Assembly (NCBI GenBank): GCA_047651235.1
Contig: CP178758.1
Location: 2,160,001 to 2,192,000, forward strand
Source of the DNA: Candidatus Electrothrix yaqonensis
Lineage (GTDB): Bacteria > Desulfobacterota > Desulfobulbia > Desulfobulbales > Desulfobulbaceae
Direction: 5' to 3'
Length of the DNA: 32,000 nucleotides
Shown here: positions 1,124 to 29,891 of the stretch, piece after piece
Position numbering within the stretch: position 1 is the stretch's first letter
Layout: every line of letters begins with the position of its first letter
Made by a program: the position numbers and the translations under genes
The notes under the pieces: model-generated
What the model was told of the DNA's origin: nothing
The model's database searches: none
What the model saw: the letters and a program-made list of their open reading frames with translations, nothing else

Positions 1124-1363
1124 CCGGAAAGGTTGATGTCCCGGTTTGCGGTGTCAGGGCTGCAGTAAGGTCTACAGTAGCACGATAACATCTATACTAA
1201 CATCTATACACAAATTGTACTCTGTGATATTATAGGAGCTATATCCGGTTTGTTGCATAAAAAATGGAGATTCTTGTGTATTGCACTGTAGTTTCGCTAA
1301 AAATATACAGCAGGATGCCGACAGCACTATCCTGCGGGTGAACGGACAGAAAAAAGGTGATCA

Positions 1364-2548: not shown

Positions 2549-2631
2549 ACAACCCGGTTCCGGTTTACCTGCTGCAGAAAGAGAAAAAATTCCTGCTTCC
2601 TGACGTATGTGCATGATATAACCGGGGAATT

Positions 2632-4842: not shown

Positions 4843-4844
4843 TT

Positions 4845-6026: not shown

Positions 6027-6037
6027 TCCGGTGACTG

Positions 6038-9764: not shown

Positions 9765-9795
9765 AACGACGGAGAAAAGACGGAAGGGAGACGTA

Positions 9796-14876: not shown

Positions 14877-16187
14877 TCACCAGCTACCTGATGCGCCTCC
14901 GCCACCACTGGACCCACCACTGGACCCACCGCTGGAACCGCCGCTGGAACCGCCGGAGCCGGTTCTTGAACTGCGATTGACACTCGCTATTGTTTGATAG
15001 TACTGATGCTGACAAGTACTGTAAGTACATTTCATGCGGGCCAGTCCGTTGCGGTTGATTGTTGGAGGTCTAACAACTTTTTCTTCCACAGTTACGTATC
15101 TGCATTTCGTACATTTATAATATTTCTTTAACGTCGTCCTCAGCATAGCACGTTTTTTATAATAGCCGCATGACTTGCACTGCCATACGTCATACTCCAC
15201 AGAACCAAGTTCTTCCTCTTTTTTTTCGCCGTCATTCAGCAGACTGCTTTTTTCATCTTTTTTTAGCAGTAGAGTTAATCTGTTATTACATTTCTTGCAC
15301 CGACGGGCACGGAATCTTATATACTGAAAAATATTTCCAGCTACTGGAAAAAGTGCCAACCAACTACAAATAAATAACGTTACAGCTGCATCGCCATGAG
15401 CGATAAATACCATAAAACTTGTGTAAACTTTTGAGTTTGAAAATTGTGCCTGCAAGTTCACAAAACATAAAAAGACCAAGAAGAAAAACGTTGAACCTGT
15501 TGTGATGGCTAAAATATTAGGATATTGTTTTATGCAACGAGTAGCTACCAGAACCGTCAGCAGGAACAGCCCTAAATATAACGGAATCAGATGAACAAAC
15601 TTAGAAATCTGCACTTTTCTCTCCAATGTCCGCAGAAACTTCGGAGCAGAATCTTTCACTCCTTTTGTCTGCTCCGGGTTCTTTTGCAGAATTTCGGCAA
15701 TTCGTTCCGCCCCGCTGATGATCCCCTCGTCAAAATTTCCGGCCTTAAAGGCGGGGATTATATTCTTCGCGATAATATTGCCGCAAAGCCCGTCTGTCAG
15801 CAGCGGTTCCAGCCCGTAGCCGACTTCAATCCGTACCCTACGCTCATTAGGCGCAATCAGAAACAGCACCCCGTTGTTGGTGTCGGCCCGCCCTATGCCC
15901 CATTCGTTGAACAGATTATTGGCGTATTCCTCTATGGTTTCTCCGTGCAGAGAAGAAACGGTCACGATATCCAGTTCCGCCGTGGTCGCCTCAGCGACTC
16001 CGGCAGTTAGCTGCTCCAGTTGCGCTTCCTGCTCCGGTGAAAGCAGAGAGGCAAAATCATAGACACGTTTCCCGGATACGGGCTGGGGATATGCGGAACA
16101 GGCGGGAGCAACCCAGCAAATCAGAGCTGCAAGAAAAACAAGACATGCCAGCCAAGTTGATTGTATCAATAGATGGTACTTTCTCAT
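14877..16187 (-). CDS. TPM-domain (YgcG-like) protein with signal peptide, multi-TM region, cytoplasmic 4xCxxC zinc-ribbon region and Gly/Ser tail
   Basis: TPM pattern: VYDFASLLSPEQEAQLEQL...ELDIVTVSSLHGETIEEYANNLFNEWGIGRADTNNGVLFLIAPNERRVRIEVGYGLEPLLTD. The C-terminal part has ~4 TM helices, then CKKC...CKSC...CTKC...C..C, and ends (GGSS)4GGGGASGSW. Start set at ATG 16187 (MRKYHLL..., preceded by GGAGGG). The upstream 186 nt of the track ORF cover the sdhA relic. Confidence 0.75.
   Translation of the reverse strand: MRKYHLLIQSTWLACLVFLAALICWVAPACSAYPQPVSGKRVYDFASLLSPEQEAQLEQLTAGVAEATTAELDIVTVSSLHGETIEEYANNLFNEWGIGRADTNNGVLFLIAPNERRVRIEVGYGLEPLLTDGLCGNIIAKNIIPAFKAGNFDEGIISGAERIAEILQKNPEQTKGVKDSAPKFLRTLERKVQISKFVHLIPLYLGLFLLTVLVATRCIKQYPNILAITTGSTFFFLVFLCFVNLQAQFSNSKVYTSFMVFIAHGDAAVTLFICSWLALFPVAGNIFQYIRFRARRCKKCNNRLTLLLKKDEKSSLLNDGEKKEEELGSVEYDVWQCKSCGYYKKRAMLRTTLKKYYKCTKCRYVTVEEKVVRPPTINRNGLARMKCTYSTCQHQYYQTIASVNRSSRTGSGGSSGGSSGGSSGGSSGGGGASGSW
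14903..14961 (-). repeat. 12-nt tandem repeat encoding (GGSS)n
   Basis: ccaccactggac x2, then ccaccgctggaa, ccgccgctggaa and ccgccggagcc. This is in-frame coding microsatellite-like repetition at the 3' end of the TPM gene. Confidence 0.8.
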
Positions 16188-16372
16188 TCTGCCCTCCATA
16201 AAAATATTCAGAAAGAATTTAAGTTGCGGGATATTGATCGTACTTAATATCTTGTTGTGAAATATTTTTCTTCGGTCAGCAAGTGGGAATTCTGTTTCGC
16301 AAAAATGAAAGTTAGTACATAGGGAGGAGGGAAAGCCTTTTGGGACGGCCCTGAAATAGGGAGGATCCATCA

Positions 16373-16442
16373 CCTATTCCTGAGGCGGCAGCTGTCCCAT
16401 TTTTCTGCAGCGGTCCGGGGGGATTTTGGGATTCACATAACA
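16373..16442 (-). pseudogene. Relic of an sdhA/frdA 5' end (start codon plus ~23 codons, frameshifted)
   Basis: 16373-16442 aligns with 14665-14736, the first 72 nt of the intact sdhA. The shared core is ctgaRgcggcagYtRtcccattttt(c)gtgcagcggKccggggg(g)gatttttggg...acat. There are two 1-nt indels and roughly 80% identity by hand. Confidence 0.7.
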
Positions 16443-16712: not shown

Positions 16713-17111
16713 TTTACCGCAATATCAGTTGATTAGCTGCGTAAATCCTTGCAGGCGACGCCAGTCACAGAGCGTTTAAATTCTCATTCCTAAGCAGGCA
16801 AACATGGAAAACCGAATAGTTACTCTGTCAATATCAACCTTTAACTTTTTCTAATTAAAAAGTAAACAGGAAACACCAGTTGACAGGATGGAATGTACCC
16901 ATCCCGGTATCACATTCCAGAATCAAACCGTGCAGCGATACGGGTTACAGAGCGGGGTTGAAGGTACGAATCCCAATTGCCTGTTTTCTCATCTGTCCTC
17001 TGCCCTCTTCAAACCGAACACTTGATTCAGACAGGGTATTTTTTCCGACACAGACTCTGTTACGCGCTGATACTGATTTGAAAATCACGCACCGCCATCA
17101 ACCTCTTGCAT

Positions 17112-17140
17112 CTTGCATTTGCAGGCACGGAACTGTATTC
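17112..17140 (+). promoter_or_regulatory. Sigma70-like promoter candidate for the kinase/ATPase operon (TTGCAT-N17-TATTCT)
   Basis: TTGCAT at 17112-17117, a 17-nt spacer, then TATTCT at 17135-17140. This is ~100 nt upstream of ATG 17247. Confidence 0.3.
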
Positions 17141-17246
17141 TAAAAAATACGCAGCAGGAAAGGAACAGTATGCGTTCTGTATTTTTTATGCTACCCTGCT
17201 TCCGGCGGCAGGAGGAAGGAGACCCAACAGGAGGAGGCGATACAGC

Positions 17247-18749
17247 ATGGCTCAGGTACGCAAGGCCAAAAACAGGAACGGAACCTCTGTCGAATATGTT
17301 GATGAGATCATCGGTTCCGGCGGGATGAAGGATGTTTATTTCACCCCGGACCGCAAGAATGTTGTTGCTTTCTTCCGGGACAAGCAGGATCGTCAGGCTC
17401 TGGAACGCCTTGAAATGATCACCGGCACCTATCGTGAAAAAATTTTCAATCAGGACGGCGGTGCGTACTGGGAGAACCTGTTCCGCTGGCCCACCGAGCT
17501 GGTTGAAGATGAGGATGGCAAAGTGGGTGTGATTGTGCCAACCTATCAGGATCATTTCTTTTTTACCACCGGTTCCATTAATAACGATTTTCTGCAGATT
17601 AAAGGCAGAGAAAAAGAGGGCAAATGGTTTGCTTCGCCAACCAACCGAAACCAGTATCTTGACCCTGCGGAACGCGGCACCTGGCTGGACTACCTGCGTA
17701 TCTCCATTCTGCTCAGCCGGGCGGTGCGGCGGATGCACGCGGCAGGGCTGGCCCATTCCGACCTCTCGTATAAAAATGTCCTGATCGATCCGGTCGGCGG
17801 CAATGCCTGTATTATTGACATTGACGGCCTAGTGGTGCCGGGGAAATTTCCGCCTGATGTGGTGGGCACGCCTGATTTTATTGCTCCGGAAGTCATTGCC
17901 ACGGCCCATCTGGACAGGCAGGATCCGCAGCGGAAACTGCCGTCCATCTATACCGACCGCCATGCCCTGGCCGTGCTGATCTACATGTACCTCCTTCTGC
18001 GCCATCCCTTACGCGGGGATAAGGTGCATGATCTTGACGAGCCGCAGCGCGATGAAGACCTGTCCATGGGCGAGCGCGCCTTATTTGTTGAGCATCCCAC
18101 GGATCAGTCCAACCGGATCAAAACAGAGTATCTCAGGCCCCTGGAAAAACCGTGGAAAGATACAGCCGCCCTGCCCTGTCAGATCGTCGGCCCGTATCTG
18201 GAAAAATTGTTTCACCAGGCCTTTATTGACGGGCTGCACTGTCCGGAAAAACGGCCCACAGCCGATGAATGGGAACAGGCTCTGGTCAGGAGCGTGGATC
18301 TGCTTCAGCCCTGCGTCAATCCCGAATGCGCCCAGAAATGGTATGTGTTCGATAATACAAAATCCCCGAAATGTCCCTTCTGCGGCACCAGATACACGGG
18401 CAAGCTGCCGGTGCTGAATCTGTACTCCAGCCGGCATGGCGGCAAGTTTCTGCCGGATAATCACCGCCTGATGGTCTATACCGGTCAGTCGCTTTTTCGG
18501 TGGCATGTGAACCGGACAGTGGTGCCCAACGAACGCCTGACTCCAAAAGACCGGCAGCGGGTCGGGTATTTCATCTTTCACAACAACAACTGGCTCTTGG
18601 TCAATGAACGGATGCCCGGCTTAATTGACCTGAGTACAAAGCAGCCGGTTCCGGCGGGCGGTAAGATTGTGCTTAAAGAGGGCCGCCAGATTTTGTTTTC
18701 CAAAGAAAACGGCGGTCGACTGGCTCTGGTCCAGCTTGTGGATGCGTAA
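17247..18749 (+). CDS. Atypical Ser/Thr protein kinase with C-terminal zinc ribbon and FHA-like beta-sandwich
   Basis: Kinase motifs: IGSGGMKDVY (Gly loop), HSDLSYKNVLID (catalytic loop), IIDIDG (DFG-equivalent) and GTPDFIAPEV (APE). The Zn ribbon CVNPEC...CPFC follows, then a tail (GQSLFRWHV...FHNNNWLLVNERMPGLIDLSTKQPVPAGGKIVLKEGRQILF) with an FHA-like pattern. Start set at ATG 17247, after GGAGGAGG. Confidence 0.8.
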   Translation: MAQVRKAKNRNGTSVEYVDEIIGSGGMKDVYFTPDRKNVVAFFRDKQDRQALERLEMITGTYREKIFNQDGGAYWENLFRWPTELVEDEDGKVGVIVPTYQDHFFFTTGSINNDFLQIKGREKEGKWFASPTNRNQYLDPAERGTWLDYLRISILLSRAVRRMHAAGLAHSDLSYKNVLIDPVGGNACIIDIDGLVVPGKFPPDVVGTPDFIAPEVIATAHLDRQDPQRKLPSIYTDRHALAVLIYMYLLLRHPLRGDKVHDLDEPQRDEDLSMGERALFVEHPTDQSNRIKTEYLRPLEKPWKDTAALPCQIVGPYLEKLFHQAFIDGLHCPEKRPTADEWEQALVRSVDLLQPCVNPECAQKWYVFDNTKSPKCPFCGTRYTGKLPVLNLYSSRHGGKFLPDNHRLMVYTGQSLFRWHVNRTVVPNERLTPKDRQRVGYFIFHNNNWLLVNERMPGLIDLSTKQPVPAGGKIVLKEGRQILFSKENGGRLALVQLVDA

Positions 18750-18787
18750 TTCTGAACCATATTCAACCTCAAGGAGAATAAACTGAT

Positions 18788-21466
18788 ATGTATCATTTTA
18801 AAGGGCTTACCCGGCAGGAAATCGAGGCCTCGCGTATAAAACACGGTTCAAACCAGCTCAGCGCGGTTGAAACAGAGACCTTCTGGGACAAACTGCTGGA
18901 CAATTTTAAAGATCCCATGATCATCATCCTGACCATTGCCCTGGTTATCGTCACGATACTGGCCGCATTCGGGCAGACAGAATGGTATGAAGGAGTGGGT
19001 ATTGCCTTTGCTGTTGTCTTGGCCACCTTGGTAGCCACGGCATCAGAATTTAAAAACGAGCAGACCTTTCAAAAGCTCCAGGAGGAAGCCTCCAAAATAC
19101 AGATCAATGTCTTCCGGGAGGACAGCGTTACGGTTGTCGGCATTGATGACGTCGTTGTCGGTGATGTTATCCTGCTCCAGCCGGGCGATAAAATTCCGGC
19201 GGACGGCAGGATTCTTGAGGGAAAAGTGGCTGTGAGCCAGGCTGCGCTGACCGGTGAACCTGAACCCCGGGGCAAAACTCCGGGAGAGGCGGATGTCTCA
19301 GATCTGGAAGATGCCCATGCCGTGTTCAGAGGAACCGTGATCGAGGACGGCGAGGCCGTTATGGAAGTGCTGCAGGTTGGTGATAACACCCATCTGGGCA
19401 GACTGGCTGAAGAACTGGAAACCGATGAACGTATGGGACCGCTCCGGGTCAAGCTGGCGCGGCTGGCGCACGGGATTGCCGTGTTCGGTTACATTACCGC
19501 CCCGCTGATCGCTCTGGCCTTCCTGTTCAAGGCGGTCTATCTGGACAACAGCGGCGACATGTCAGCGATAGCAGCGTATGCAGCCGACTGGACGCATCTA
19601 CTCTCTGATATTGTCAAAGCCCTGATTCTTGCTGTCATCATTATTGTGGTGGCGGTTCCTGAAGGACTGCCCATGATGATCGCCATTGTCTTGGCTCAGA
19701 ACATGCGCAAGCTGCTCAGGTCCAATGTCCTGGTCCGGCAACTGCTGGGGGTGGAGACCTCAGGCAGCCTGAACCTACTTTTTACTGATAAAACCGGAAC
19801 GGTTACCAAAGGCCTGTTGGAAACCGTGGGCTTTCTGACTGTAGCAGATACGGACATGAAGGATGCGGTAAGACAGTATGACAGTTTTGAAAAATTGCCG
19901 GAACAGAATGCTAGGCTGCTGGATCTGTCGCTGCGGGAAAATACCTCCAGTGTGGTGAACTGCAAGGCAACTACAGAGTCCGAACGGATTGTGGGCGGCA
20001 ACAGTACGGACCGGGCTTTGCTGAAATTTGTCCATGCAGAGAGCACAGAATGTCAGTATGAGGAGAAAACCACGGAAAAAGTGGATGAACTGCTCTTTAA
20101 TTCGACCAGAAAATTTTCCGCAGTCCGCATCAGAAAAGAAGACGGCCAGGAAATGACCCTGATCAAGGGAGCGCCGGAAAAAATCTTTGCGCAATGCGGC
20201 TCTTTTTATGATAGTCAGGGCAATGTTGCTCCCCTTCCGGCAGAGCGAAAAACAGCCATTGTCCAGACCATTGACAGCAGAACCGATGAGGGATTCCGCC
20301 TGATCGCGGTTGCGGTGACCGAGGAACCAATCCCGGCAAATCTGGATGCGATGACAGGTCAGCTGACCCTGCTGGGATTTGCCATGATCCGCGATGATCT
20401 ACGGCCGGAAGCAGCTGACACAGTGAAAGAACTCCACAGTGCCGGGATCCAGGTGGTCATGATCACCGGTGACCGTAAAGGCACGGCTCAGGCCATTGCC
20501 AAAGAGGCAGGCCTAATCACCTCTCCGGACGATGTTGTCCTGACCTCGGATGAAATGGCCGACCTCTCTGATGATGCCTTAAAGAAGATTATCCCGAATC
20601 TGAAAGTTGTCTCCAGATGCCTTCCTTCGGATAAATCCCGCCTCGTCAAAGTAACCCAGGAAATGGGCCTGGTGGTCGGCATGACCGGAGACGGGGTCAA
20701 TGACAGTCCGGCCCTGAGCAGTGCGGATATCGGCTTCGGCCTGGGAAGCGGCACTGAAGTGGCCAAAGAGGCCTCGGATATCGTGGTGCTTGACGACAAT
20801 ATCCAGTCCATTGCTAATGCGGTTCATTACGGCCGGACGATCTACCATTCCATCCAGAAATTTATCACCTTTCAGCTTACCGTCAATGTGGCGGCAATTT
20901 CCATCGCCTTCCTCGGCCCCTTCTTAGGTTTTGAGCTGCCCCTGACCATGATCCAGCTGCTCTGGGTCAACCTGATTATGGATACCTTGGCTGCTCTGGC
21001 CTTTTCCGGTGAGCCGCCTCTGCCGGAATACATGGAGGAAAAACCGAAAGAGCGGGAAGAACATATCATCACCTCAAGGATGTGGCAGTCCATTTTGGGC
21101 AACGGCTTTTTCATGACCGCAGTCTGTGTCCTGTTTTTGAAAGCATCTTTTGTTCACAACCTGTTTGCCAGCGAGGAGGTCTTTATGACCGCCTTTTTCG
21201 GAATATTTGTCTTCCTGAACAACTTCAACAAGTTTAATGTCCGGGTGGAGGACTGGAAGCTGTTTGATCATCTTTCCGCCAACAAAGGATTTTTACAGGT
21301 GGTCGGAATGATTTTTCTGATCCAGATAGTTATCACCTATATCGGCGGCGAGGTGTTCCGGACTGTTGCTTTGGGAGTACAGGACTGGTTCTGGGTTATT
21401 GTGTTTTCCATTGTTATTGTTCCCTTTGATCTTGCAAGAAAAAGTCTTTTCAACAAGAATAAGTAA
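18788..21466 (+). CDS. Ca2+-translocating P-type ATPase (P2B/PMCA-LMCA1-like, single-site type)
   Basis: N-terminal GLTRQEIEASRIKHGSNQL, TGEPEP, TM4 VPEGLPMM, the phosphorylation site DKTGTVT, MITGD, TGDGVNDSPAL, TM5 FQLTVNVAAISIAF (Ala where SERCA has Glu771) and TM6 LWVNLIMDTLAAL. Confidence 0.88.
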   Translation: MYHFKGLTRQEIEASRIKHGSNQLSAVETETFWDKLLDNFKDPMIIILTIALVIVTILAAFGQTEWYEGVGIAFAVVLATLVATASEFKNEQTFQKLQEEASKIQINVFREDSVTVVGIDDVVVGDVILLQPGDKIPADGRILEGKVAVSQAALTGEPEPRGKTPGEADVSDLEDAHAVFRGTVIEDGEAVMEVLQVGDNTHLGRLAEELETDERMGPLRVKLARLAHGIAVFGYITAPLIALAFLFKAVYLDNSGDMSAIAAYAADWTHLLSDIVKALILAVIIIVVAVPEGLPMMIAIVLAQNMRKLLRSNVLVRQLLGVETSGSLNLLFTDKTGTVTKGLLETVGFLTVADTDMKDAVRQYDSFEKLPEQNARLLDLSLRENTSSVVNCKATTESERIVGGNSTDRALLKFVHAESTECQYEEKTTEKVDELLFNSTRKFSAVRIRKEDGQEMTLIKGAPEKIFAQCGSFYDSQGNVAPLPAERKTAIVQTIDSRTDEGFRLIAVAVTEEPIPANLDAMTGQLTLLGFAMIRDDLRPEAADTVKELHSAGIQVVMITGDRKGTAQAIAKEAGLITSPDDVVLTSDEMADLSDDALKKIIPNLKVVSRCLPSDKSRLVKVTQEMGLVVGMTGDGVNDSPALSSADIGFGLGSGTEVAKEASDIVVLDDNIQSIANAVHYGRTIYHSIQKFITFQLTVNVAAISIAFLGPFLGFELPLTMIQLLWVNLIMDTLAALAFSGEPPLPEYMEEKPKEREEHIITSRMWQSILGNGFFMTAVCVLFLKASFVHNLFASEEVFMTAFFGIFVFLNNFNKFNVRVEDWKLFDHLSANKGFLQVVGMIFLIQIVITYIGGEVFRTVALGVQDWFWVIVFSIVIVPFDLARKSLFNKNK

Positions 21467-21511
21467 TTCCTGCCGAACAGACGCGAAGGCGTCCGCAGGA
21501 GCAATCTTCAT

Positions 21512-21558
21512 CCCGGACTGATCTCTCATCCGTCATCAGTCCGGGGCAGTACTTTTTT
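21512..21558 (+). terminator. Rho-independent terminator after the ATPase gene
   Basis: A perfect 11-bp stem pairs CCCGGACTGAT (21512-21522) with ATCAGTCCGGG (21535-21545) around a 12-nt loop. T6 lies at 21553-21558. Confidence 0.65.
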
Positions 21559-21578
21559 CCGTTGATCCTTGATAAACG

Positions 21579-22592
21579 ATGATAAACCATGCGCGATTTT
21601 TTTTTATACAGCGAGATAACAATCCTTTACGAAAAGAGGCATTTACCGCTTCTTTCCTCGGCAAACTGCATCCGGCCCGGCTCCCGCATCTGCAGCGCGG
21701 GAGCTGCTGTCTGGCCCGGTTACTCCGGGCATCCCTTGCCGAACTCCCGGTTTCCGGTAATGTCCTGCTCATCGGTCTGACAGAATCCGGCATTGTTCCT
21801 TCTTTTCTGATGTATCTGGAAGCCTGTCAATTAAACATTCCATGCCGATGGATCTGTTCAACCCGCCGGCTAGGTGAATCCGGGGTCGTTTTTGAGGAAA
21901 CACACTCGCACAGCCCGAATCATACCCTACCGATACCGGAGGCCAGTTTCTCGGAAGTCTGGATTGTCGAAGATGAAATCACCACAGGCCGGACAATACA
22001 GAATCTCCTGCACCAGCTCCAGGATCATGTTGCCGCCCAGATCTTCCGCATATTTTCTCTGGTGGATTTCCGGTCTGCACAGCAGCAGCAAGGTTTTTTA
22101 TCGTTGTTGGATGATCAGACAACAACATATCTTTTTCATACGGCCGTCCATTTGTCCGATATGCAGGGCGACAGCGCTGACTATCCGGATGACTTGGCAG
22201 AAAAAAGCACATATTCATCCGGATATCCTGAATATCTGCTCCCGAAGTTAGCCCCGTCATGCGGTCTGCGATGGAATCAGATACCGCCGGAATCTGCCGA
22301 TGCAACTCTGTTTGTTCTTGGGGAAGCAGTGCATACAGCAGTGCTGCTGGTGGCTGCCGGGAAATTCCGGGATTTTCAGCACATCACCCTCAGTCCGTGG
22401 CTGGTGGATGCATGCAGTATCAGGAGCAGAATAGACCTGCCCGGAAAGCATTATCTCTATAATACAACGAAGCAGGAACTCCGGTCGCCTGTCTTTCTCC
22501 TGCACGATCCGGCAGATCAGGCGATGAGCAGCAAAGTACACAGGGAGCTGGAAGGACAGGGCATACCTGTTCAGCAACTGCACCTTTTATAA
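21579..22592 (+). CDS. Ter-associated phosphoribosyltransferase (PRTase_2 + TRSP-type architecture)
   Basis: PRPP-binding loop VWIVEDEITTGRTIQNLL. Upstream are FLGKLHPARLP and LLIGLTESGIVPS. The C-terminal ~150 aa extension is consistent with the TRSP domain seen C-terminal to this PRTase class in Ter loci. The first in-frame start is 21579, and no SD is evident. Confidence 0.65.
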   Translation: MINHARFFFIQRDNNPLRKEAFTASFLGKLHPARLPHLQRGSCCLARLLRASLAELPVSGNVLLIGLTESGIVPSFLMYLEACQLNIPCRWICSTRRLGESGVVFEETHSHSPNHTLPIPEASFSEVWIVEDEITTGRTIQNLLHQLQDHVAAQIFRIFSLVDFRSAQQQQGFLSLLDDQTTTYLFHTAVHLSDMQGDSADYPDDLAEKSTYSSGYPEYLLPKLAPSCGLRWNQIPPESADATLFVLGEAVHTAVLLVAAGKFRDFQHITLSPWLVDACSIRSRIDLPGKHYLYNTTKQELRSPVFLLHDPADQAMSSKVHRELEGQGIPVQQLHLL

Positions 22593-22620
22593 TTTCTACA
22601 ACCCTCAGCAATCAGATACC

Positions 22621-23622
22621 ATGCAGCAGGCAATCCTTCCGGATGCGGAAAACAATTTCTGGCAACAGTATATTTATGTCGATCTGCGGGAAGAGGTGCA
22701 TCCTTTTAACGAAATGCACCGCTTCCGCAGATTGGAACAGGCCTACACCGGCGAAAACACCTTCTGGTCCATTCCTTCTCCGGAACCGGATCTGGATGAT
22801 ACCTTCTGGCAGCATGTGCATGACCAGCTGGACAATAAACAGATCCGGAGGGCAGCACAGCAGCTGGCTGCCGTCATTCTACAGTGGGAAGCGGATCCGG
22901 AGCAGCTTATTTTTGTCGCCATTCTCAGGGCCGGGGTGCCTATTGCAAAGTGGCTCTGTCAGATGCTGCCCGGAGCAGTGAGTGCCGCCATATCGCTTTT
23001 TGTCGGCATCGGCATTGACCGGCAGGCCCTGGCCCGGCTGCAGGCAGATTTCCCGGACCGGAAGATTGTTTTTGTTGACGGTTGGACAGGGCGCGGCGGG
23101 GTTGCCAGAGAACTTGCCCGGCTTGATAAAGGGCCTTTGGCGGTGCTCAATGATCCCTGGGGCTGGGCAGATTTTTCCGGCATTCAGGAGGATATATTCT
23201 GCCCTTCCGCCTGTTTCACCGGCCTGACAACGCTTGGTTTTTCCAGAACCTTTTTTGTGGATGAGCAGCATTTCTTTGCTGCGTACAGATTTCCGGAATC
23301 CCACACCCGCAAAGATCTGGTTGATGCTTGGTGCACAGCCGGACCTGCACAGCCGACCCGCCCTGCTGCGGAAAAATGCAGACATTTTCATCAGGAAACC
23401 GAGCTGCGTATCCACAGCAATGAAGTCTGCCGGGCCTTGATTAATGCTGCGCCCAAGACCCTCTTTTTTACGGATGACGCCCGATATGCTGAGGAGCACT
23501 TCCCTCTGCTGCTGCTTCTGGCGGAACAGCGGGGCGTACCGGTGGAGTATAATCAGACATTTTTAAATAAATATCGTACCCGCGCTGCCTGTTCTCTGCG
23601 TATTGAACAGCTGAAAGCCTAA
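22621..23622 (+). CDS. Ter-associated phosphoribosyltransferase, PRTase_1 type (family often mis-annotated as cysteine protease StiP)
   Basis: LIFVAILRAGVPIAKWL and the PRPP-loop-like IVFVDGWTGRGGVAREL. Size (~330 aa) and its position next to the other PRTase match the Ter biosynthetic module as I remember it. Confidence 0.6.
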   Translation: MQQAILPDAENNFWQQYIYVDLREEVHPFNEMHRFRRLEQAYTGENTFWSIPSPEPDLDDTFWQHVHDQLDNKQIRRAAQQLAAVILQWEADPEQLIFVAILRAGVPIAKWLCQMLPGAVSAAISLFVGIGIDRQALARLQADFPDRKIVFVDGWTGRGGVARELARLDKGPLAVLNDPWGWADFSGIQEDIFCPSACFTGLTTLGFSRTFFVDEQHFFAAYRFPESHTRKDLVDAWCTAGPAQPTRPAAEKCRHFHQETELRIHSNEVCRALINAAPKTLFFTDDARYAEEHFPLLLLLAEQRGVPVEYNQTFLNKYRTRAACSLRIEQLKA

Positions 23623-23672
23623 GATTATACTTGTATAAAATGGATAAATAAAACAAGAACAAGGAGGCTGAT

Positions 23673-24428
23673 ATGGCAGTATGTGTTTTTTGTAAACAGG
23701 AAGAAGGAAATCCGTCCTGTGCGTTCTGTAAAGGTAAAGGAACTCCCGCGACAAAGAAGAGAGCTTCTTCTGCTGAAAAAACGAATACACCCATCCCTAA
23801 ACAGACTGGCCAGATATCTCTCAAGAAAGGCGGTCGCCCTGTTCTTATTCAAAAAACACCTAAAATTACAGCAACTGTCTCCTGGAAAAGCGGCACAGAT
23901 TATGACATATATGCTCTGGTTATGCTTAAAAACGGGGAAGAAATTGCAGTTGCAACATTTGGTGCCATTTTAAAAGAGAAAGGATTGTTTGGGAAAAAAC
24001 ATAGGATTCCTCCCCTTATGAACTTTGGAAACGGTGCGGTAAGTCATCGTGGTGACGTCGTAGGCCGTGGCTCAGAAAAAGGCTTTGAGATTATTGATAT
24101 TCGACTAAATGACGATATTGTTGCAGTTGTTCCAGTGGCGTATTCTGCACAGTCAAACGGGACAGGGTCCTTCTACCGTTACCGTGTTACATTGGAAATT
24201 AACAACAATCAAGGAACGACCGTCACTCTTCCGGCTGAAACTGCGAACAATAATGATCTTATTTATACTTGTGTACCGGGGATTATCTATAATTATCCGA
24301 ACGGCATTCAAATTGAAGCACTTGAACTCTACAGTAAACCAGGTTCTGAGAATCGACCAAAACTCCAGCTTGACAACAACAAAGTTACTGTGCTGATGGA
24401 TATGGGAGCAAAAAATGAATATAAATGA
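23673..24428 (+). CDS. Divergent TerD-domain protein with N-terminal CxxC-x8-CxxCxGxG zinc knuckle
   Basis: N-terminus MAVCVFCKQEEGNPSCAFCKGKG, then a basic linker, then a TerD-like core (ISLKKGGRPVLI...ATVSWKSGTDYDIYALVMLKNG...HRGDVVGRGSEKGFEIIDIRL...YRYRVTL). A strong SD (AAGGAGG) is present. The gene looks AT-richer than its neighbours by eye. Confidence 0.65.
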   Translation: MAVCVFCKQEEGNPSCAFCKGKGTPATKKRASSAEKTNTPIPKQTGQISLKKGGRPVLIQKTPKITATVSWKSGTDYDIYALVMLKNGEEIAVATFGAILKEKGLFGKKHRIPPLMNFGNGAVSHRGDVVGRGSEKGFEIIDIRLNDDIVAVVPVAYSAQSNGTGSFYRYRVTLEINNNQGTTVTLPAETANNNDLIYTCVPGIIYNYPNGIQIEALELYSKPGSENRPKLQLDNNKVTVLMDMGAKNEYK

Positions 24429-24458
24429 ATATCCAACCCCAACTCGCTGGATCTGCTG

Positions 24459-25205
24459 ATGAGAAAAAACACACTGCATTCGCAGAATAAAGCCGTTGCC
24501 GTTGATCTTGACGGTACCTTGGTGCATACGGTGCCGGGGGAATATACCATACCGGGGCGCTCCGGAAACTGTTATCTGTCGCATCGGGCAGTTGAGTTGT
24601 TAGCCGAAATCAGCCGCACCCTGCCGACCTTTATTACAACCGGCAGGAATGCGGCGAGCGTTCAGAAGATAATCCGGCATCTTGAAAAGGTACGTTTTGT
24701 GGGCTTTATCCTGGAAAATGGTTTTGTGGTCAAAAAGGACCTCCGCAGCCCTGATCCTCGAAAAGAGAAGTGGAAATTTGCAGACAAGGTACCGCCGGAC
24801 TGGGAACCCATTCCGGGGTATGAGCGTTCTGCCGGGTTTATCCTGCCCAGAGGACAGAAAAATCCGGCAGAGCTTGTCCGGAATCTATTAAAAGAGACTC
24901 GGGAGCAGGGGTATATCCATTTAAACCAACCGAAAATTTTTGTCTATCCTCAGGAGCCGGATAAAATGCAGGGGCTTGCCGAATTCAATGTCCGGCCGCA
25001 CATAGCACTGGGGAACGATATCAACGATACCCAGCTGATGCAGGCAAGTACCTATCCGGTTACTTTACAGGCTGCACATTCTTCCATCAAAAAAATAGCA
25101 GAAAAAAAGGACGGATACTGTTCACCCTTTGCCGACCATGCCGCAGCAGAGGATATGCTGCGCTGGGCCTGCACCAAGTTATCTGCCCTGTCTTCCTCGT
25201 CCTGA
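24459..25205 (+). CDS. HAD-superfamily phosphatase (Cof/IIB-like)
   Basis: Motif I VAVDLDGTLV, motif II ITTGRN, motif IV LGNDINDTQLM. Confidence 0.75.
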   Translation: MRKNTLHSQNKAVAVDLDGTLVHTVPGEYTIPGRSGNCYLSHRAVELLAEISRTLPTFITTGRNAASVQKIIRHLEKVRFVGFILENGFVVKKDLRSPDPRKEKWKFADKVPPDWEPIPGYERSAGFILPRGQKNPAELVRNLLKETREQGYIHLNQPKIFVYPQEPDKMQGLAEFNVRPHIALGNDINDTQLMQASTYPVTLQAAHSSIKKIAEKKDGYCSPFADHAAAEDMLRWACTKLSALSSSS

Positions 25206-25220
25206 CCTTCCCCTGATCTC

Positions 25221-26525
25221 ATGCGGGATAATGAACATATCACGAGTAATATAAAAGAGTTTCCCGATTCATTCTATCTGCCGAAATATGCAGATGATAT
25301 GTTGTCCCGATACGGAAAACATATTGACATTCTCCTGTCCGAAGGCATCCGCCCCCTTCCGGAACGGCTAACCGCTTTCTTTGCCGTCTCGCCTCAGGGA
25401 AGGTATACAAAAAAAGGAATGGATCAGGCCTTTGTTGCTGCGGAAGGGTTCTCGGGCGTCAACCCCGGTGAACAGGCGGATTATGACCAGGGGGTTCCTC
25501 GGCTGACCGAAGTGGATGTCAGCAGGGCCTTGCAGAAAAATCCGGCCAACAGGCAATGGCTTGTCCTGAGCCTGGAGCGCACAGCGCAGAGATACGGCCT
25601 TGCTCTGTCCGGTGATCTCATACAGAGTAGCTCGCAGTTACTTGATTTTTTGTATCATGAAATTTCGTTCTGGGAGGCAGACAGCTTTCCGTTGGATGCC
25701 ATGATGGACCTGACCAATCAATACCACTGGACCTTCCGATCAGATGCCTGGTCGTTGCGGGAACAGCTGCGGCGGGAGGCCCTGATTATCCATGCTGCCT
25801 GGAAAGAACTGCTCAGACTGTCCCGTCAGCATCCCCTCTTCCTCATCCTTAACCAGGCGACCCCCACGGATTATTTCTGCAGTGCATTACCGCAGGGTGC
25901 ATCCCTGTTTGCACAAGGGACTGATCAGAGTGAGCAGCAGATCCTTGTCTCTGCGGACATCAAGATATCCTCTTCCGAGCACCGGGATACTCTCCAGAAA
26001 ACCTCTGAAGGCGATGCGCTTGAGCAGGCAGTGGAGATCGCCTGTACCGTACAGCGGGTTCCTGTTGTATGTGATCTGTCACGCCGTCGTTTTCCGCGTT
26101 CTTTCCTGCGAATAGCCCGATTTGCCCAGTGCAGAGGCTGGGGGATCCAGCCGCTGGGCAAGCTGGCAGACCCTGCAGCAACACAGCTGCCGCAGGCAAA
26201 ATCCTGTTCCGGCTTTCCGGTCCTGTCCGGTCATCCTGAGCTGCTCCTGTTTGACCCGTGGCCTATCTCGGATACGCAGATCGTGCCGGAACTGCCTCCG
26301 GATATTTCGGATAGGTTTGTGACTGCTCCGCAGACAAAACCCTGGCAGGATGATCGGATCGGGGCAAGAAATGAGCTGGAAATGGATGAACACGGACAGT
26401 ACCGTGCCGGAGCGCAAAGCTGGGTACTGCCTGTTCCGGGCGGCTGGATGCGGGTGCATGATCTGTTCAAAAGTCGCATGGCCCGGTTCCTGCGCGGGAT
26501 GGATTCGTCGCTGTATATTATCTAG
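25221..26525 (+). CDS. Hypothetical protein, 434 aa, no recognisable domain
   Basis: A long ORF tightly packed between the two HAD genes (15-nt and 14-nt gaps). Its codon usage resembles that of its neighbours. I see no motif I can assign. Confidence 0.6.
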   Translation: MRDNEHITSNIKEFPDSFYLPKYADDMLSRYGKHIDILLSEGIRPLPERLTAFFAVSPQGRYTKKGMDQAFVAAEGFSGVNPGEQADYDQGVPRLTEVDVSRALQKNPANRQWLVLSLERTAQRYGLALSGDLIQSSSQLLDFLYHEISFWEADSFPLDAMMDLTNQYHWTFRSDAWSLREQLRREALIIHAAWKELLRLSRQHPLFLILNQATPTDYFCSALPQGASLFAQGTDQSEQQILVSADIKISSSEHRDTLQKTSEGDALEQAVEIACTVQRVPVVCDLSRRRFPRSFLRIARFAQCRGWGIQPLGKLADPAATQLPQAKSCSGFPVLSGHPELLLFDPWPISDTQIVPELPPDISDRFVTAPQTKPWQDDRIGARNELEMDEHGQYRAGAQSWVLPVPGGWMRVHDLFKSRMARFLRGMDSSLYII

Positions 26526-26539
26526 AAATCTGAACACTT

Positions 26540-28525
26540 ATGCAACAAAAAACAGTCTTTGTTTTTGATCTTGATGGGACCATGAATCATGCCGCGCCTG
26601 TGCCCGGCGGCTTACCCATTCGGGGCCGAACAACCGATTCGTTTCTGGATGGGCGGGTTATTGAGCTGCTACTCGAACTTGCAGAGGTGACCGATCTGTA
26701 TGTTGCGACCGGCAGGTCACGGACAACCGTCGAGGATTTCAGGAGTCATTTTTCTGCTGCCGGTATCCGGATTTCCGGCTGGATACTGGAGCACGGCACC
26801 CAGATTAAGGGCCACCCAGCCTGGACGGAAAAAGTCCTGACCGGGATCGATCTTGTTGCGGTTCATGCCCGGGCCGGAGAAATTATTCAGAAGAACGGTT
26901 ATACCATTGATACGGAATGCTACCGGGAGGCGCATCAGTCCATTCTGCTGTACTCCGGCAGGGACCGGTGCGAGGCCGAAGCACTGCTGTCCCGGCTTGC
27001 CGGTGTACTGAACAACCGCTTCAGAACCATTGTCGGCTCCCGGAAGATTGTCCTTATTCCCAAAGGTGGCGATAAATATGCTGCTTTCCAAGCCGTGTTC
27101 GGAAAAACGCATACTCTCTGCTGTGCAGCCGGTGATATGCCAGATGACCTGACCCTGTTGCGCCACGCAGCTTTTCCTCTGACCCTGCGGAGCGCTTCCC
27201 CCCTTGTGCAGAGATATGTGGAGGAGCGCGGCGGTTTTGTCGCTGCCGAGGGCGGGCATGAGGGGACGGCAGAAGTTCTCCGGGCGGCCCTGGCATATTT
27301 CCGGGGTAAACATTCCGGGCTGCCTGTGCCTGGTCCGCGCCTGCCTGTGGAAGAGATGGAATCCTTCCGGCCTTCCCGATGCAGTTTTCTGGACCGGCTG
27401 TTCCGCGATGTTCGGTTTCCTGAACAAGAACCGGATATTGATCGGATCAGGCAGGCAGCCTCTCAGCTTGATGGAGGCAGAAATACTGTTGTTGAAGTAC
27501 GGATGCGGGACTGGGGCGGAGAAGCGAAATCTTTGCGCAGCCTGCTCAACGCAATGGTTCCGCTTATTCCGTATGCGCACTGGCGGCTTGTCTTTCGGCA
27601 GGAACGTCTTGGTGCAGACAATCTGCAGGATTTTCAGGTCATCACGGCTCGACTGGCCGATTTCTCTTTGCTGCCCGACGGGACGCACCGTTTTTCTGCG
27701 CCCGGTGTGCCGAACTCGCCACAAGAAGAAAGGGAATCCGCAATAACCTTATTGCTCTATGATCATCCGGAGGATATGGGGCCTTGGTATGATCATGCTG
27801 TACCCCGGCTGATAACCCGCCATCCGCAGGATACTACAGCTTGGTTTATCAATCCGATGTTTCTGAAGATTTCCGGCATCAGCACTGGACTGACCAGTAA
27901 GAATCGTGCTGCCCGGCAGATACACTATGCAGGCCCCAAGGTCATGATGGCGGCAAATATCGTCGATGACACGGATATCCGGATTGCCGTGCAGGGATTC
28001 GAGCAGTTATCCCCTGCTCTGGACGCGCTTATTCTTGCACCCCGTGTGGTAACCAATCCGCAGCGCAATAAAAAAATCAGAGAAGCTGCAGCCTCTGTCA
28101 GCAAAGAGATATCCTTTCTTTCCCGGCTCTCCCCGACAGACCGCCCCCGTATCCTCCTGGTCGATACCTACGGTGACTTAGAAAATTTGTATACCCATTG
28201 CTGCATAACCTATCTGGGTGGCGGCTTTGACCCGAGAAAACGAGGTTTTGATCCTATGGAATCTCTGGCTGCCAAGGTACCGGTTATTTTGGGGCCGCTC
28301 TATGATTTCAACCGGATAGCAGTAGACTCGTTCAGGCAGACCGGGTGGGTAAATATCCTTACGCAGGAAGAAACCGGTGTAGAGGATTTTGTCGGCATCG
28401 CTAAAAATTTACTGAAGCGTAAACCGGATGGCCGGACATTACACAATGTTTTGCAAATCCGAAGATTGGATACCCTGCGTATTGCAGAGGAACTGCTGCA
28501 GGATTTTGCAAAAACAGGGGGATGA
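26540..28525 (+). CDS. Fusion protein: N-terminal HAD phosphatase + C-terminal GT-B glycosyltransferase resembling Kdo transferase (WaaA/KdtA, GT30)
   Basis: HAD motifs VFVFDLDGTMNH, VATGRS and AAGDMPDDLTLL. The C-terminal RILLVDTYGDLENLYTHCCITYLGGGFDPRKRGFDPMESLAAKVPVILGPLYDFNRIA aligns by eye with the WaaA pattern GDSMGEL..LY..AD.AFVGGSLV..GGHNPLE.AA...PV..GP....F..I. Confidence 0.65.
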   Translation: MQQKTVFVFDLDGTMNHAAPVPGGLPIRGRTTDSFLDGRVIELLLELAEVTDLYVATGRSRTTVEDFRSHFSAAGIRISGWILEHGTQIKGHPAWTEKVLTGIDLVAVHARAGEIIQKNGYTIDTECYREAHQSILLYSGRDRCEAEALLSRLAGVLNNRFRTIVGSRKIVLIPKGGDKYAAFQAVFGKTHTLCCAAGDMPDDLTLLRHAAFPLTLRSASPLVQRYVEERGGFVAAEGGHEGTAEVLRAALAYFRGKHSGLPVPGPRLPVEEMESFRPSRCSFLDRLFRDVRFPEQEPDIDRIRQAASQLDGGRNTVVEVRMRDWGGEAKSLRSLLNAMVPLIPYAHWRLVFRQERLGADNLQDFQVITARLADFSLLPDGTHRFSAPGVPNSPQEERESAITLLLYDHPEDMGPWYDHAVPRLITRHPQDTTAWFINPMFLKISGISTGLTSKNRAARQIHYAGPKVMMAANIVDDTDIRIAVQGFEQLSPALDALILAPRVVTNPQRNKKIREAAASVSKEISFLSRLSPTDRPRILLVDTYGDLENLYTHCCITYLGGGFDPRKRGFDPMESLAAKVPVILGPLYDFNRIAVDSFRQTGWVNILTQEETGVEDFVGIAKNLLKRKPDGRTLHNVLQIRRLDTLRIAEELLQDFAKTGG

Positions 28526-28541
28526 AAAGATGTCCCCCTGT
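28508..28541 (-). terminator. Terminator for terD (possibly bidirectional), overlapping the stop codon of the convergent HAD-GT gene
   Basis: A 9-bp GC-rich stem pairs ACAGGGGGA (28514-28522) with TCCCCCTGT (28533-28541) around a 10-nt loop. On the minus strand the hairpin is followed by TTTTTGC. Confidence 0.6.
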
Positions 28542-28560: not shown

Positions 28561-29142
28561 TCAGGCCGCACTTACGCCGTATTTTGCGCAGACCTGCCCA
28601 AGCCCTTCCTCTGATCCCTGCCCTACAGCCTTAAACTTCCATTCGCCGTTTTTAAGATACACTTCGCCAAATATCACTGCGGTCTCCTTAAAAAAATCTT
28701 CAGTCAGGTCGTAACGCGTAATTTCCACATCATCGACTGCGTTGACAATCCGAATAAAGGCATTCTCCACCATCCCGAAGTTCTGACCGCGTTTGTCTGC
28801 TTCGTGAATTGTCACCACAAATACGGCTTTAACCAGTTCCGGGGGCATATCTTTCAGCGACATCATGATGACCTCGTCATCCCCTTCACCTTCGCCGGTC
28901 AGGTTATCCCCGGTATGGACAACAGCACCATTGGCGCCCTGCAGGTTGCCGTAGAAAATAAAATCCTGGTCACCCGTCACTTTGCCGTCCGCACCGCAAA
29001 GAAATATCGAGGCATCAAGATCAAACTCAGCCCCGCCCAGAGCTTGGGCATCCCAGCCGCAGCCGACCTTGATGGCTTCCAGTCCCGGAGCTTCTTTGCT
29101 CAAAGAAATATTGGCGCCTTTTTTTAATGATAATACAGCCAT
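28561..29142 (-). CDS. terD: TerD-family tellurite/stress resistance protein (canonical, Ca2+-binding motifs intact)
   Basis: MAVLSLKKGANISLSKE, FDLDASIFLCGADGKV, GDNLTGEGEGDDEVI, ENAFIRIVN and EWKFKAVGQG. It is collinear with TerD/TerE/TerZ. Confidence 0.92.
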   Translation of the reverse strand: MAVLSLKKGANISLSKEAPGLEAIKVGCGWDAQALGGAEFDLDASIFLCGADGKVTGDQDFIFYGNLQGANGAVVHTGDNLTGEGEGDDEVIMMSLKDMPPELVKAVFVVTIHEADKRGQNFGMVENAFIRIVNAVDDVEITRYDLTEDFFKETAVIFGEVYLKNGEWKFKAVGQGSEEGLGQVCAKYGVSAA

Positions 29143-29198: not shown

Positions 29199-29891
29199 TT
29201 ATTTTCTTCCTGTTCCTTTGCAGAACACACAGTTTCCGCCTGCACCTTTGCACATAGGGCATGGAACACCTGTCGGCGACGGTCCCGGCTGTGACGGTGG
29301 TGATGAAGGCGTCTGTCGGGGAGGAGGCGGTGCTGAAGACGGCAGGGCCTTCGGTGCCGACTTCGGGGCTGACCCGGTATTGAGGGACAGATTGAATTCT
29401 CCGGCCAGCGAGTGGACATCCACCCGTATGACTTGGGCATGACGTTCAATACAGGCCTGCTCTTGGGGGTCACAATCCCCGTCAGCAGCGGCAACTGCCA
29501 GAGCACAGAGAATGACCAGTCTGGCCAGTTCCGGATCCTCAATATTTCGGACAGCCAAGAGAATAGCCTCCTCATCGCAGAGAAAAGCCGATACCGCATA
29601 GTGCTCCATCTTCTTGACGAGTTCATCTATGCTGAACATTTCCAAGATAGGAGTATCCCGACAATTCTGCAACAGAAATTTACGGAATTCTTCCAATTCT
29701 TCCCGGTACAGCCGCCCGTTCTGCGAGGCAACATCGCCGACTACGGCACAGAGTGCCTCGACAAACGGCTCAAATTTTTTCCGTTTAAACCTATTCCCGA
29801 TTCCTTTGAATGCATTGCCCACGCCGCCGATAAAATCAGCAGATGAGTTGACCATCTGCTCTCCGGTCCGCCCCCAATTTCTTTGCGCCAT
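29199..29891 (-). CDS. terB: TerB-domain protein with Pro-rich linker and C-terminal CxxCxGxG-x2-CxxCxGxG zinc knuckle
   Basis: RFKRKKFEPFVEALCAVVGDVASQNGRLYREELEEFRKFL and LVILCALAVAAADGDCDPQEQACIERHAQ align with E. coli TerB as remembered. The C-terminus is SAPPPPRQTPSSPPSQPGPSPTGVPCPMCKGAGGNCVFCKGTGRK. Confidence 0.8.
   Translation of the reverse strand: MAQRNWGRTGEQMVNSSADFIGGVGNAFKGIGNRFKRKKFEPFVEALCAVVGDVASQNGRLYREELEEFRKFLLQNCRDTPILEMFSIDELVKKMEHYAVSAFLCDEEAILLAVRNIEDPELARLVILCALAVAAADGDCDPQEQACIERHAQVIRVDVHSLAGEFNLSLNTGSAPKSAPKALPSSAPPPPRQTPSSPPSQPGPSPTGVPCPMCKGAGGNCVFCKGTGRK

Follow-up and report, generated by a model that had tools for sequence, protein, structure and literature searches.

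A HAD-IIB phosphatase domain fused to a GT30-derived glycosyltransferase, with a conserved partner gene and a clade-specific link to Ter genes

We analyzed a window of 32,000 nucleotides from Candidatus Electrothrix yaqonensis (assembly GCA_047651235.1, contig CP178758.1, positions 2,160,001 to 2,192,000 of the forward strand); all coordinates below are those of the window. Our subject is one of its genes, here called HAD::GT, which encodes a HAD-type phosphatase domain joined to a glycosyltransferase (GT) of the GT-B fold. The protein is 100% identical to ACL93V_10330 of the cable bacterium Ca. Electrothrix sp. YB6, which is labeled "hypothetical protein" at NCBI. HAD::GT is the final plus-strand gene of an operon-like run (17106–28525) with gaps of 14–112 nt, narrowing to 14–50 nt from the phosphoribosyltransferase gene PRTase_2 onward, and it converges on terD and terB. 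Upstream of it lie, in this order, genes for a kinase-like protein, a Ca2+ ATPase, PRTase_2, StiP, a Zn-ribbon protein, a stand-alone HAD phosphatase (HAD248), and an uncharacterized protein that we refer to as the partner (Table 1). [quoted passage not shown]

The phosphatase half agrees with that description. Complete HAD motifs had been noted within the first ~250 residues, and all four are present, namely I (DLDGT, residues 10–14), II (T57), III (K169/K179), and IV (GDxxDD, 198–203), with D10/D12, T57, K169/K179, G198-D199, and D202-D203 invariant in 40 to 41 of 41 orthologs. NCBIfam places residues 7–207 in HAD-SF-IIB (TIGR01484), under the model cut-off, and the sole match of the full protein in Pfam, where no GT model was matched, is a sub-threshold one to Hydrolase_3 (PF08282). 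The AlphaFold2 model, built on the 41 orthologs, has a predicted local distance difference test score (pLDDT) of 93.1 and a predicted template modeling score (pTM) of 0.90 for the whole chain. In Foldseek searches of the PDB, its HAD part is matched by sucrose-phosphatase 1s2o (E 2.3e-9, TMt 0.69), the trehalose-6-phosphate phosphatase T6PP (6qj6), and PMM2, the fold of HAD-IIB phosphatases being common also to PMM-type mutases. By its motifs, profile membership, and modeled fold, the fused domain is of the HAD-IIB phosphatase type, with predicted phosphatase activity.

The GT half resembles WaaA, the Kdo transferase of family GT30, along its whole length in structure and in its C-terminal half in sequence. 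The top PDB match of the HAD::GT model is WaaA 2xci (E 1.9e-10), aligned over ~400 columns as against 209 for the isolated WaaA C-domain 4bfc, so that the alignment spans both Rossmann halves; weaker matches include OGT-type GT-B structures. Four NCBIfam WaaA models (PRK05749) match residues 465–612 (E 3.7e-9 to 1e-4), and the HAD::GT family profile retrieves Aquifex aeolicus WaaA (2xci) from the PDB (E 4e-7). Profile-profile comparison by hhalign with a 94-sequence alignment (93 WaaA representatives and Escherichia coli WaaA) pairs residues 464–659 with WaaA 229–423 (probability 99.9, E 3.6e-31) and gives no signal for the N-terminal GT half. An N-half alignment could be forced by running hhalign against the single E. 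coli WaaA sequence or in global mode, and was discarded as meaningless; the C-half alignment alone is reliable. When the profile of the GT part was searched against 1.84 billion representative proteins, the 5 matches below 1e-30 all belonged to the family itself and were followed, after a gap, by 2,661 weaker ones. The best of the latter were ~420-residue proteins aligned solely through their C-terminal halves. All 9 of the non-family matches that were tested carry PF04413 (Glycos_transf_N), the signature domain of GT30, which identifies the nearest non-family relatives as true WaaA. Judged by these searches, GT30 Kdo transferases appear to be the only sequence relatives of the GT half.

The similarity extends to the nucleotide site. 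In A. aeolicus WaaA, cytidine monophosphate (CMP) is contacted by P211/R212, F247/G248/L250, N273, and E276 (PMC6286764). Transferred through HMMER alignments with a chain index offset of 21, these positions correspond in HAD::GT to P501/R502, Y544/G545/L547, D571, and E574, and none of these residues varies among the 41 sequences. Every contact position is thus identical or conservatively changed, bar N273, whose contact to CMP goes through the backbone nitrogen and whose side chain is replaced by that of D571. The first-pass annotation had matched the last ~200 residues by eye to the nucleotide-sugar half of WaaA, and this match holds up: the strings that it quoted, LVDTYGDLENLY...YLGGGF...GFDPMESLAAKVPVILGP...FNRIA, lie at residues 539–594. 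HAD::GT also has an invariant insert, R566-K567-R568, placed before the GFD (N273-equivalent) position and not found in WaaA.

The N-terminal, or acceptor, half of the GT differs. No match to PF04413 was found in Pfam at E <= 1. The half instead has invariant motifs of its own: an RMRDWGGE.K loop after the first β-strand, FR.ER.G..NL, APGVP, YDHPED..PWY, and NPM.LK. In the model, the loop residues W325-G326-G327-E328 follow β1 (317–322) and precede α1. The first-pass annotation had pointed to this segment (VVEVRMRDWGGEAKSL, residues 317–332) as lying where WaaA has its W.H..S.GE element; the invariant loop indeed stands after β1 as the WaaA SxGE site (G30/E31) does, and the two may correspond, an equivalence drawn from position in the model and not from aligned sequence. 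The hydropathy maximum (Kyte-Doolittle scale, KD19) is 1.19, compared with 1.63 for the membrane anchor of E. coli WaaA, and there is no transmembrane-like segment, so HAD::GT is predicted to be soluble and anchorless. Its best score against the NCBIfam WaaA equivalog models is 35.6 bits, the cut-off being 438. Lacking PF04413 and a membrane anchor and scoring far below the equivalog cut-off, HAD::GT is not a WaaA ortholog and should not be annotated as a lipid IVA Kdo transferase. We conclude that the donor half derives from GT30 and that the acceptor half has been reinvented, being WaaA-like in fold alone; the earlier wording "Kdo-transferase-like" is therefore apt for the C-half and fails for the N-half, the enzyme being WaaA-derived rather than WaaA.

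The fusion itself is genuine. We found ~40 full-length fused orthologs, 46–81% identical, in NCBI, JGI, ENA, and Logan assemblies. That two genes were joined by a frameshift or by an error of assembly, an idea to which the single stand-alone GT described below might lend some color, is refuted by so many independent fusions from many assemblies and sources, by the conserved, well-modeled linker, and by the whole-chain pTM, and we give it practically no probability. When one genome was scanned for each of 185,579 species, the family was found in 18, of which 17 are labeled Desulfobacterota (Desulfobacterales-type labels, Electrothrix, Desulfocapsa, Desulforhopalus, and Desulfamplus); the remaining carrier is an "Enterobacterales" metagenome-assembled genome (MAG) that is probably mis-binned. 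The multi-domain WaaA relatives that were recovered, LpxL-WaaA, DUF374-WaaA, GT9-WaaA, and tandem WaaA, do not include a HAD-IIB::GT30-like protein, and our literature searches found no description of this architecture. Nevertheless, the fusion is not obligatory. In Desulfamplus MAG JADGBO01, a GT of 482 residues stands alone (locus L026, 186–1634), with stop codons upstream in all frames, and the other HAD is fused to the partner. The question whether orthologs are fused or split thus has a mixed answer, with ~40 fused and the Desulfamplus GT separate.

These data bear on two further explanations. One is an envelope role, in which HAD::GT, as an alternative enzyme, would transfer Kdo to lipid A or some other glycolipid and its HAD domain would act like KdsC, the Kdo-8-P phosphatase. 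The WaaA homology and the presence of a HAD phosphatase, KdsC, in the Kdo pathway fit this idea, as does the NCBI record for the E. aarhusensis protein (P0003), which is named "Lipid IV(A) Kdo transferase". We nonetheless regard it as very improbable: the protein lacks the hydrophobic anchor and PF04413, it scores 10–20 times under the WaaA equivalog cut-offs, its HAD is of type IIB, with the KdsC-family model TIGR01670 absent from its NCBIfam matches at E <= 0.1, and its neighbors are cytoplasmic nucleotide-metabolism genes. WaaA is widespread in bacteria that produce lipopolysaccharide (LPS), and a family found in so few species does not fit such a role. The other is that the GT-B domain is catalytically silent and serves as a nucleotide- or ligand-binding module that regulates the HAD domain or sequesters or senses the Ter metabolite. 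Ligand sensors have been proposed in Ter systems (PMC7824862), and the nucleotide-binding half alone is recognizably WaaA-like; however, the invariant WGGE appears to occupy the place of the proposed catalytic base of WaaA (G30/E31), many acceptor-half residues are invariant across sequences of 46–81% identity, as in an active site, and a GT without HAD exists in Desulfamplus. This explanation seems to us unlikely.

The near-constant neighbor of HAD::GT is the partner gene, which the first-pass annotation had passed over, rather than the Ter genes. Partner homologs (44–52% identity) lie directly upstream of HAD::GT, often overlapping its start codon, at nearly all loci with upstream DNA, the loci without an adjacent partner being those of E. 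aarhusensis (two assemblies) and of the Desulfobacteraceae MAGs L013 and L025. The family has 55 homologs, many of them on contigs equal in size to those carrying HAD::GT. Its members share invariant polar motifs, KISSSEHR, the Arg-rich DFSRRRFPR, DPWP, and KPWQDDRIGAR.E, and the AlphaFold2 model is confident (pLDDT 91.6, pTM 0.92). No Pfam match was found in 43 members scanned, no PDB match by profile search, and no fold match by Foldseek (best E 0.28 against the PDB and 0.16 against the viral folds of BFVD). We therefore class the partner as an uncharacterized, enzyme-like family. A recurrent, very weak Foldseek resemblance to SIS-fold phosphosugar isomerases (GmhA, MurQ, PGI; probability at most 0.16), alongside the motif KISSSEHR, is recorded as a lead and was not used as evidence. 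The NCBI start of the gene is 26 codons downstream (408 residues, P0046), which affects window positions 25221–25298; residues 1–26 are conserved in homologs (N..FP.A motif), which favors the longer reading frame.

The partner is fused to a HAD domain in two proteins (P0247 and P0248). The latter, from a 2.4-kb contig of a JGI metagenome (L028, 8–2173), carries a distant partner-like domain (hhalign probability 97.7) attached N-terminally to an S6PP-type HAD-IIB domain and is a second, independent partner-HAD architecture. Together with the HAD248::partner fusion of Desulfamplus (see below), it indicates that the partner is repeatedly coupled to HAD-IIB phosphatases. The tight pairing of HAD::GT with a protein bearing the Arg-rich motif, and the OGT-type GT-B enzymes among the weaker structural matches, might suggest a protein glycosyltransferase that modifies the partner or a Ter protein, in the manner of EarP-type or OGT-type enzymes. 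The many invariant polar motifs of the partner and its HAD fusions fit a metabolic enzyme better than a substrate, and we see very little likelihood in such protein glycosylation.

Linkage to the Ter genes follows the phylogeny of HAD::GT. PRTase_2, StiP, and HAD248 accompany the two-gene cassette of partner and HAD::GT only in the window, in Desulforhopalus and Desulfocapsa, and at loci L007 and L021, and HAD248 was seen only at Ter-linked loci. The arrangement in this clade is PRTase_2-StiP-HAD-partner-HAD::GT beside TerD/TerB. E. aarhusensis keeps PRTase_2 and StiP and is missing HAD248, and the contig-edge locus L010 shows HAD248 only. At least 10 other loci hold just the partner and HAD::GT; PRTase and Ter genes are absent within 10 kb of them, and their neighborhoods are unrelated (MoaC/MoaE, PilZ/TauE, dynamin-like). 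A neighbor-joining tree of HAD::GT separates a Ter-linked clade, which spans several genera, from an "alone" clade; the linkage is thus evolutionarily stable, yet a property of a subfamily. Of the proposed Ter-linked operon, what stands is the window and this one clade, and it does not extend to the two-gene loci. In E. aarhusensis (two independent assemblies; L005, 3150–9929, and L009), a complete type I restriction-modification system (hsdM, hsdS, hsdR) lies between StiP and HAD::GT, taking the place of HAD248 and the partner, a behavior reminiscent of defense islands; PADLOC returned zero matches for any cassette gene.

Desulfamplus provides a further link. In MAG JADGBO01 (L027, 3439–8314), a fused PRTase_2::StiP protein of 792 residues is followed directly by an 811-residue HAD248::partner fusion, whose HAD part is the HAD248 ortholog (36% identity), which reinforces the connection between the partner and the PRTase module. 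The 470-residue gene after this fusion is not a GT homolog. The stand-alone GT of the same MAG adjoins a Ca2+ ATPase (L026, 1778–4468) with 63% identity to the window ATPase. These reshuffled domains act as a natural Rosetta stone that ties all the components together. The slot between kinase and PRTase_2 is filled by a PMCA-type Ca2+ ATPase in the window and by a Na+/Ca2+ exchanger (PF01699) at related Ter-linked loci (L005/L006/L007); the presence of two unrelated Ca2+ exporters in one slot suggests that this Ter variant includes Ca2+ efflux.

Table 1. Features of HAD::GT and its surroundings in the window.
Feature	Position	Strand	Evidence or remarks
HAD-IIB::GT30-like glycosyltransferase (HAD::GT)	26540..28525	+	661-aa open reading frame, ATG start, TGA stop
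HAD-IIB phosphatase domain, aa 1-256	26540..27307	+	TIGR01484 E 2.5e-4, PF08282 E 4.6e-3, Foldseek; motifs I-IV intact
Helical linker, aa 257-312, PGPRLP.EE..FRPSR..YLD.LF	27308..27475	+	kept in ortholog alignment; pLDDT 87-95
GT-B N-terminal (acceptor) half, aa 313-447	27476..27880	+	Rossmann-like β-α-β in AlphaFold2 model; Foldseek vs 2xci
GT-B C-terminal (donor) half, aa 464-661	27929..28522	+	hhalign vs WaaA, PRK05749 models, PDB 2xci and 4bfc
Partner protein, 434 aa, uncharacterized family	25221..26525	+	homolog linkage; AlphaFold2 pLDDT 91.6
Stand-alone HAD-IIB phosphatase (HAD248)	24459..25205	+	PF08282 E 1.2e-10
Zn-ribbon and weak TerD-like protein, 251 aa	23673..24428	+	N-terminal CxxC..CxxC; BLASTP E 8e-4 vs window TerD
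StiP / PRTase_1-type protein	22621..23622	+	PF11202 E 3e-23
PRTase_2 phosphoribosyltransferase	21579..22592	+	PF15609 E 2.2e-18
PMCA-type Ca2+ P-type ATPase	18788..21466	+	TIGR01517 E 6.6e-183
Ser/Thr protein kinase-like, first gene of plus-strand run	17106..18749	+	PF00069 E 2.8e-8
TerD, convergent	28561..29142	-	PF02342 E 2.8e-75
TerB with C-terminal Zn-ribbon	29199..29891	-	PF05099 E 3.4e-9; CPMCKGAGGNCVFCKGTG tail
GC-rich 9-bp hairpin ACAGGGGGA/TCCCCCTGT	28514..28541	.	covers last codons and stop codon of HAD::GT; sequence inspection

Several window genes call for brief comment. HAD248 is a paralog of the fused HAD domain (~25% identity). The Zn-ribbon/TerD-like protein has a very diverged TerD-like domain and is an insert specific to the window, missing at every related locus; its N-terminal Zn-ribbon is similar in style to the CPMCKGAGGNCVFCKGTG Zn-ribbon of the convergent TerB. 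The kinase-like protein shares 73% identity with its counterpart in the TerY-PP2C-kinase triad at locus L007. On the minus strand, TTTT comes after the hairpin at the end of HAD::GT, which probably serves to terminate terD and is common to the convergent genes; it escaped a terminator scan because the loop, at 10 nt, exceeds the 8-nt limit of the scan and only 4 T residues follow. Further away, a plus-strand block at 344–10833 (DUF218, ArgJ, a 736-residue MORN-repeat protein, M20 peptidase, GCS2 glutamate-cysteine ligase, gamma-glutamyltranspeptidase, and ABC peptide permeases) is unrelated to HAD::GT and has gamma-glutamyl/glutathione-like metabolism as its theme. A 498-residue protein with a TPM_phosphatase domain (E 1.2e-42) is encoded on the minus strand at 14877–16373, divergent from the kinase-Ter operon and in the lowest-GC stretch of the window (0.42–0.44 vs about 0.53).

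We propose, with an even chance of being right, that HAD::GT is a soluble, cytoplasmic enzyme with two functions that glycosylates a small molecule with a CMP sugar and adds a phosphatase step, and that the product in the Ter-linked clade is a glycosylated Ter metabolite. The GT-B donor domain would transfer a CMP-activated acidic sugar, the most likely kind of donor given the descent from GT30 and the kept CMP site; the ulosonic-acid type of donor suggested by the first-pass annotation is, on the retained contacts, a reasonable guess. Gram-negative cells make CMP-Kdo for LPS. CMP-Kdo would accordingly be the simplest and most obvious candidate, and its use would explain a cassette without a sugar-activation gene. 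Since the protein has no membrane anchor and its acceptor half has been remodeled, with new charged motifs that are invariant, the acceptor would not be lipid A but a small polar molecule, probably carrying a phosphate. The HAD-IIB domain may remove a phosphate from this acceptor or from the product, a step suggested by its structural proximity to SPP and T6PP and by analogy with the OtsA/OtsB, SPS/SPP, and GgpPS pairs; the earlier supposition that one intermediate undergoes both dephosphorylation and glycosylation is plausible on this analogy. The partner, itself found fused to HAD-IIB domains, would make, supply, or handle the phosphorylated intermediate or acceptor.

In the Ter-linked clade, the cassette is appended to PRTase_2-StiP-HAD, and the acceptor would most likely be a PRTase-derived ribosyl or nucleoside-like compound. 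Action of HAD::GT on the PRTase product is a prediction that draws its support from the order of the genes and from the fusions in Desulfamplus. A nucleoside-like compound has been described as a Ter signal (PMC7824862), and the product of this clade may be that proposed Ter metabolite, a signal or effector, in glycosylated form. More specifically, though we rather doubt that all of it is correct, the cassette might make a cytoplasmic small molecule containing Kdo or another CMP-activated ulosonic acid, for instance a nucleoside-like compound glycosylated with Kdo, that serves as a Ter stress or anti-phage signal or effector, with the partner as a new enzyme fold supplying the phosphorylated acceptor.

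Several observations count against this proposal. The cassette contains no CMP-sugar synthetase, and the donor is a guess from the retained CMP site; the RKR insert (566–568) might point instead to a diphosphate donor or to some other ligand. In sequence, the acceptor half resembles no characterized enzyme. The Desulfamplus GT lacks a HAD domain, so the two activities need not be tightly coupled, and E. aarhusensis has HAD::GT with neither partner nor HAD248 in its 22-kb locus. Finally, at about half of the loci neither a PRTase nor a Ter gene lies within 10 kb, and there a PRTase product cannot be assumed as the acceptor.

The same loci invite the view that partner and HAD::GT form a pathway apart from Ter that turns common metabolites into a glycoside, for example a compatible solute or a compound for storage, so that their position among Ter genes would reflect co-regulation or hitch-hiking on an island. 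This is possible, if somewhat doubtful. The varied neighborhoods of the at least 10 stand-alone cassettes speak for it, and so does the pairing of a GT with HAD-IIB, a hallmark of compatible-solute synthesis, with SPP and T6PP as the best structural matches of the HAD domain. The hosts are named for sulfate-reducing and sulfur-cycling groups (Desulfobacterales and relatives), which are typical sediment bacteria. However, Ter linkage is stable over a whole clade of several genera, the partner in Desulfamplus is fused to the Ter-module HAD right after PRTase_2::StiP, and a CMP-type donor site is unusual in that compatible-solute synthases use NDP-sugars.

If the proposal of a two-step synthase acting with a CMP sugar is correct, the scope of the GT30 lineage would widen from membrane lipid A to soluble acceptors. 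On the more specific reading of a Ter signal or effector containing Kdo or another ulosonic acid, the compound would be the first soluble metabolite made by an enzyme of GT30 lineage and, among glycosylated Ter metabolites, the first to be defined. The chemistry of the Ter "nucleoside-like metabolite" has stood as a prediction since 2012, and the locus adds to that pathway two unusual proteins, a CMP-sugar-type glycosyltransferase/phosphatase and a partner without detectable relatives of known family. Natural controls are at hand in a clade with PRTases, a clade without them, and the reshuffled Desulfamplus fusions; with these and with concrete enzymes to work on, the product is directly testable. 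Our analysis also corrects the database names "HMP-PP phosphatase-like HAD hydrolase", "Lipid IV(A) Kdo transferase", and "hypothetical protein".

Three known systems provide points of comparison. With WaaA/KdtA (A. aeolicus 2xci/2xcu, E. coli b3633), HAD::GT shares the GT-B fold, a homologous donor domain, the CMP contacts, and a Gly-Glu loop after β1, which in WaaA holds the proposed catalytic base and in HAD::GT is the invariant WGGE. WaaA differs in having a PF04413 acceptor half and a membrane anchor and in lacking the RKR insert, whereas HAD::GT carries the HAD-IIB fusion, stands among cytoplasmic nucleotide-metabolism genes, and is confined to a few Desulfobacterota. The Ter-associated module comprises PRTases and HAD enzymes that make nucleoside or nucleotide derivatives, with no glycosyltransferase listed (PMC7824862), as the first-pass annotation had maintained. 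The window has its PRTase_2, StiP/PRTase_1, and HAD genes, together with TerD, TerB, and the kinase, in the expected arrangement; it differs in the additional partner and HAD::GT and in lacking ATP-grasp and C-C lyase genes. The latter two reportedly belong to the module as described by Anantharaman, Iyer, and Aravind in 2012. The third comparison is with the glycoside-phosphate synthase/phosphatases: OtsA-OtsB/TPS-TPP, sucrose-phosphate synthase with an SPP-like domain, GgpPS, and MgsD. These, too, combine GT-B and HAD-IIB in one polypeptide, and the likely logic is the same, namely that a sugar is added to a phosphorylated acceptor and the phosphate is then removed; their glycosyltransferases are of GT20, GT4, or GT81 type and use nucleoside diphosphate (NDP) sugars, whereas HAD::GT is GT30-derived, with a CMP-type site, and comes with an uncharacterized partner. 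HAD::GT thus combines known kinds, the two-step synthase of GT-B and HAD and the GT30 lineage, with an uncharacterized partner in a narrow phyletic range.

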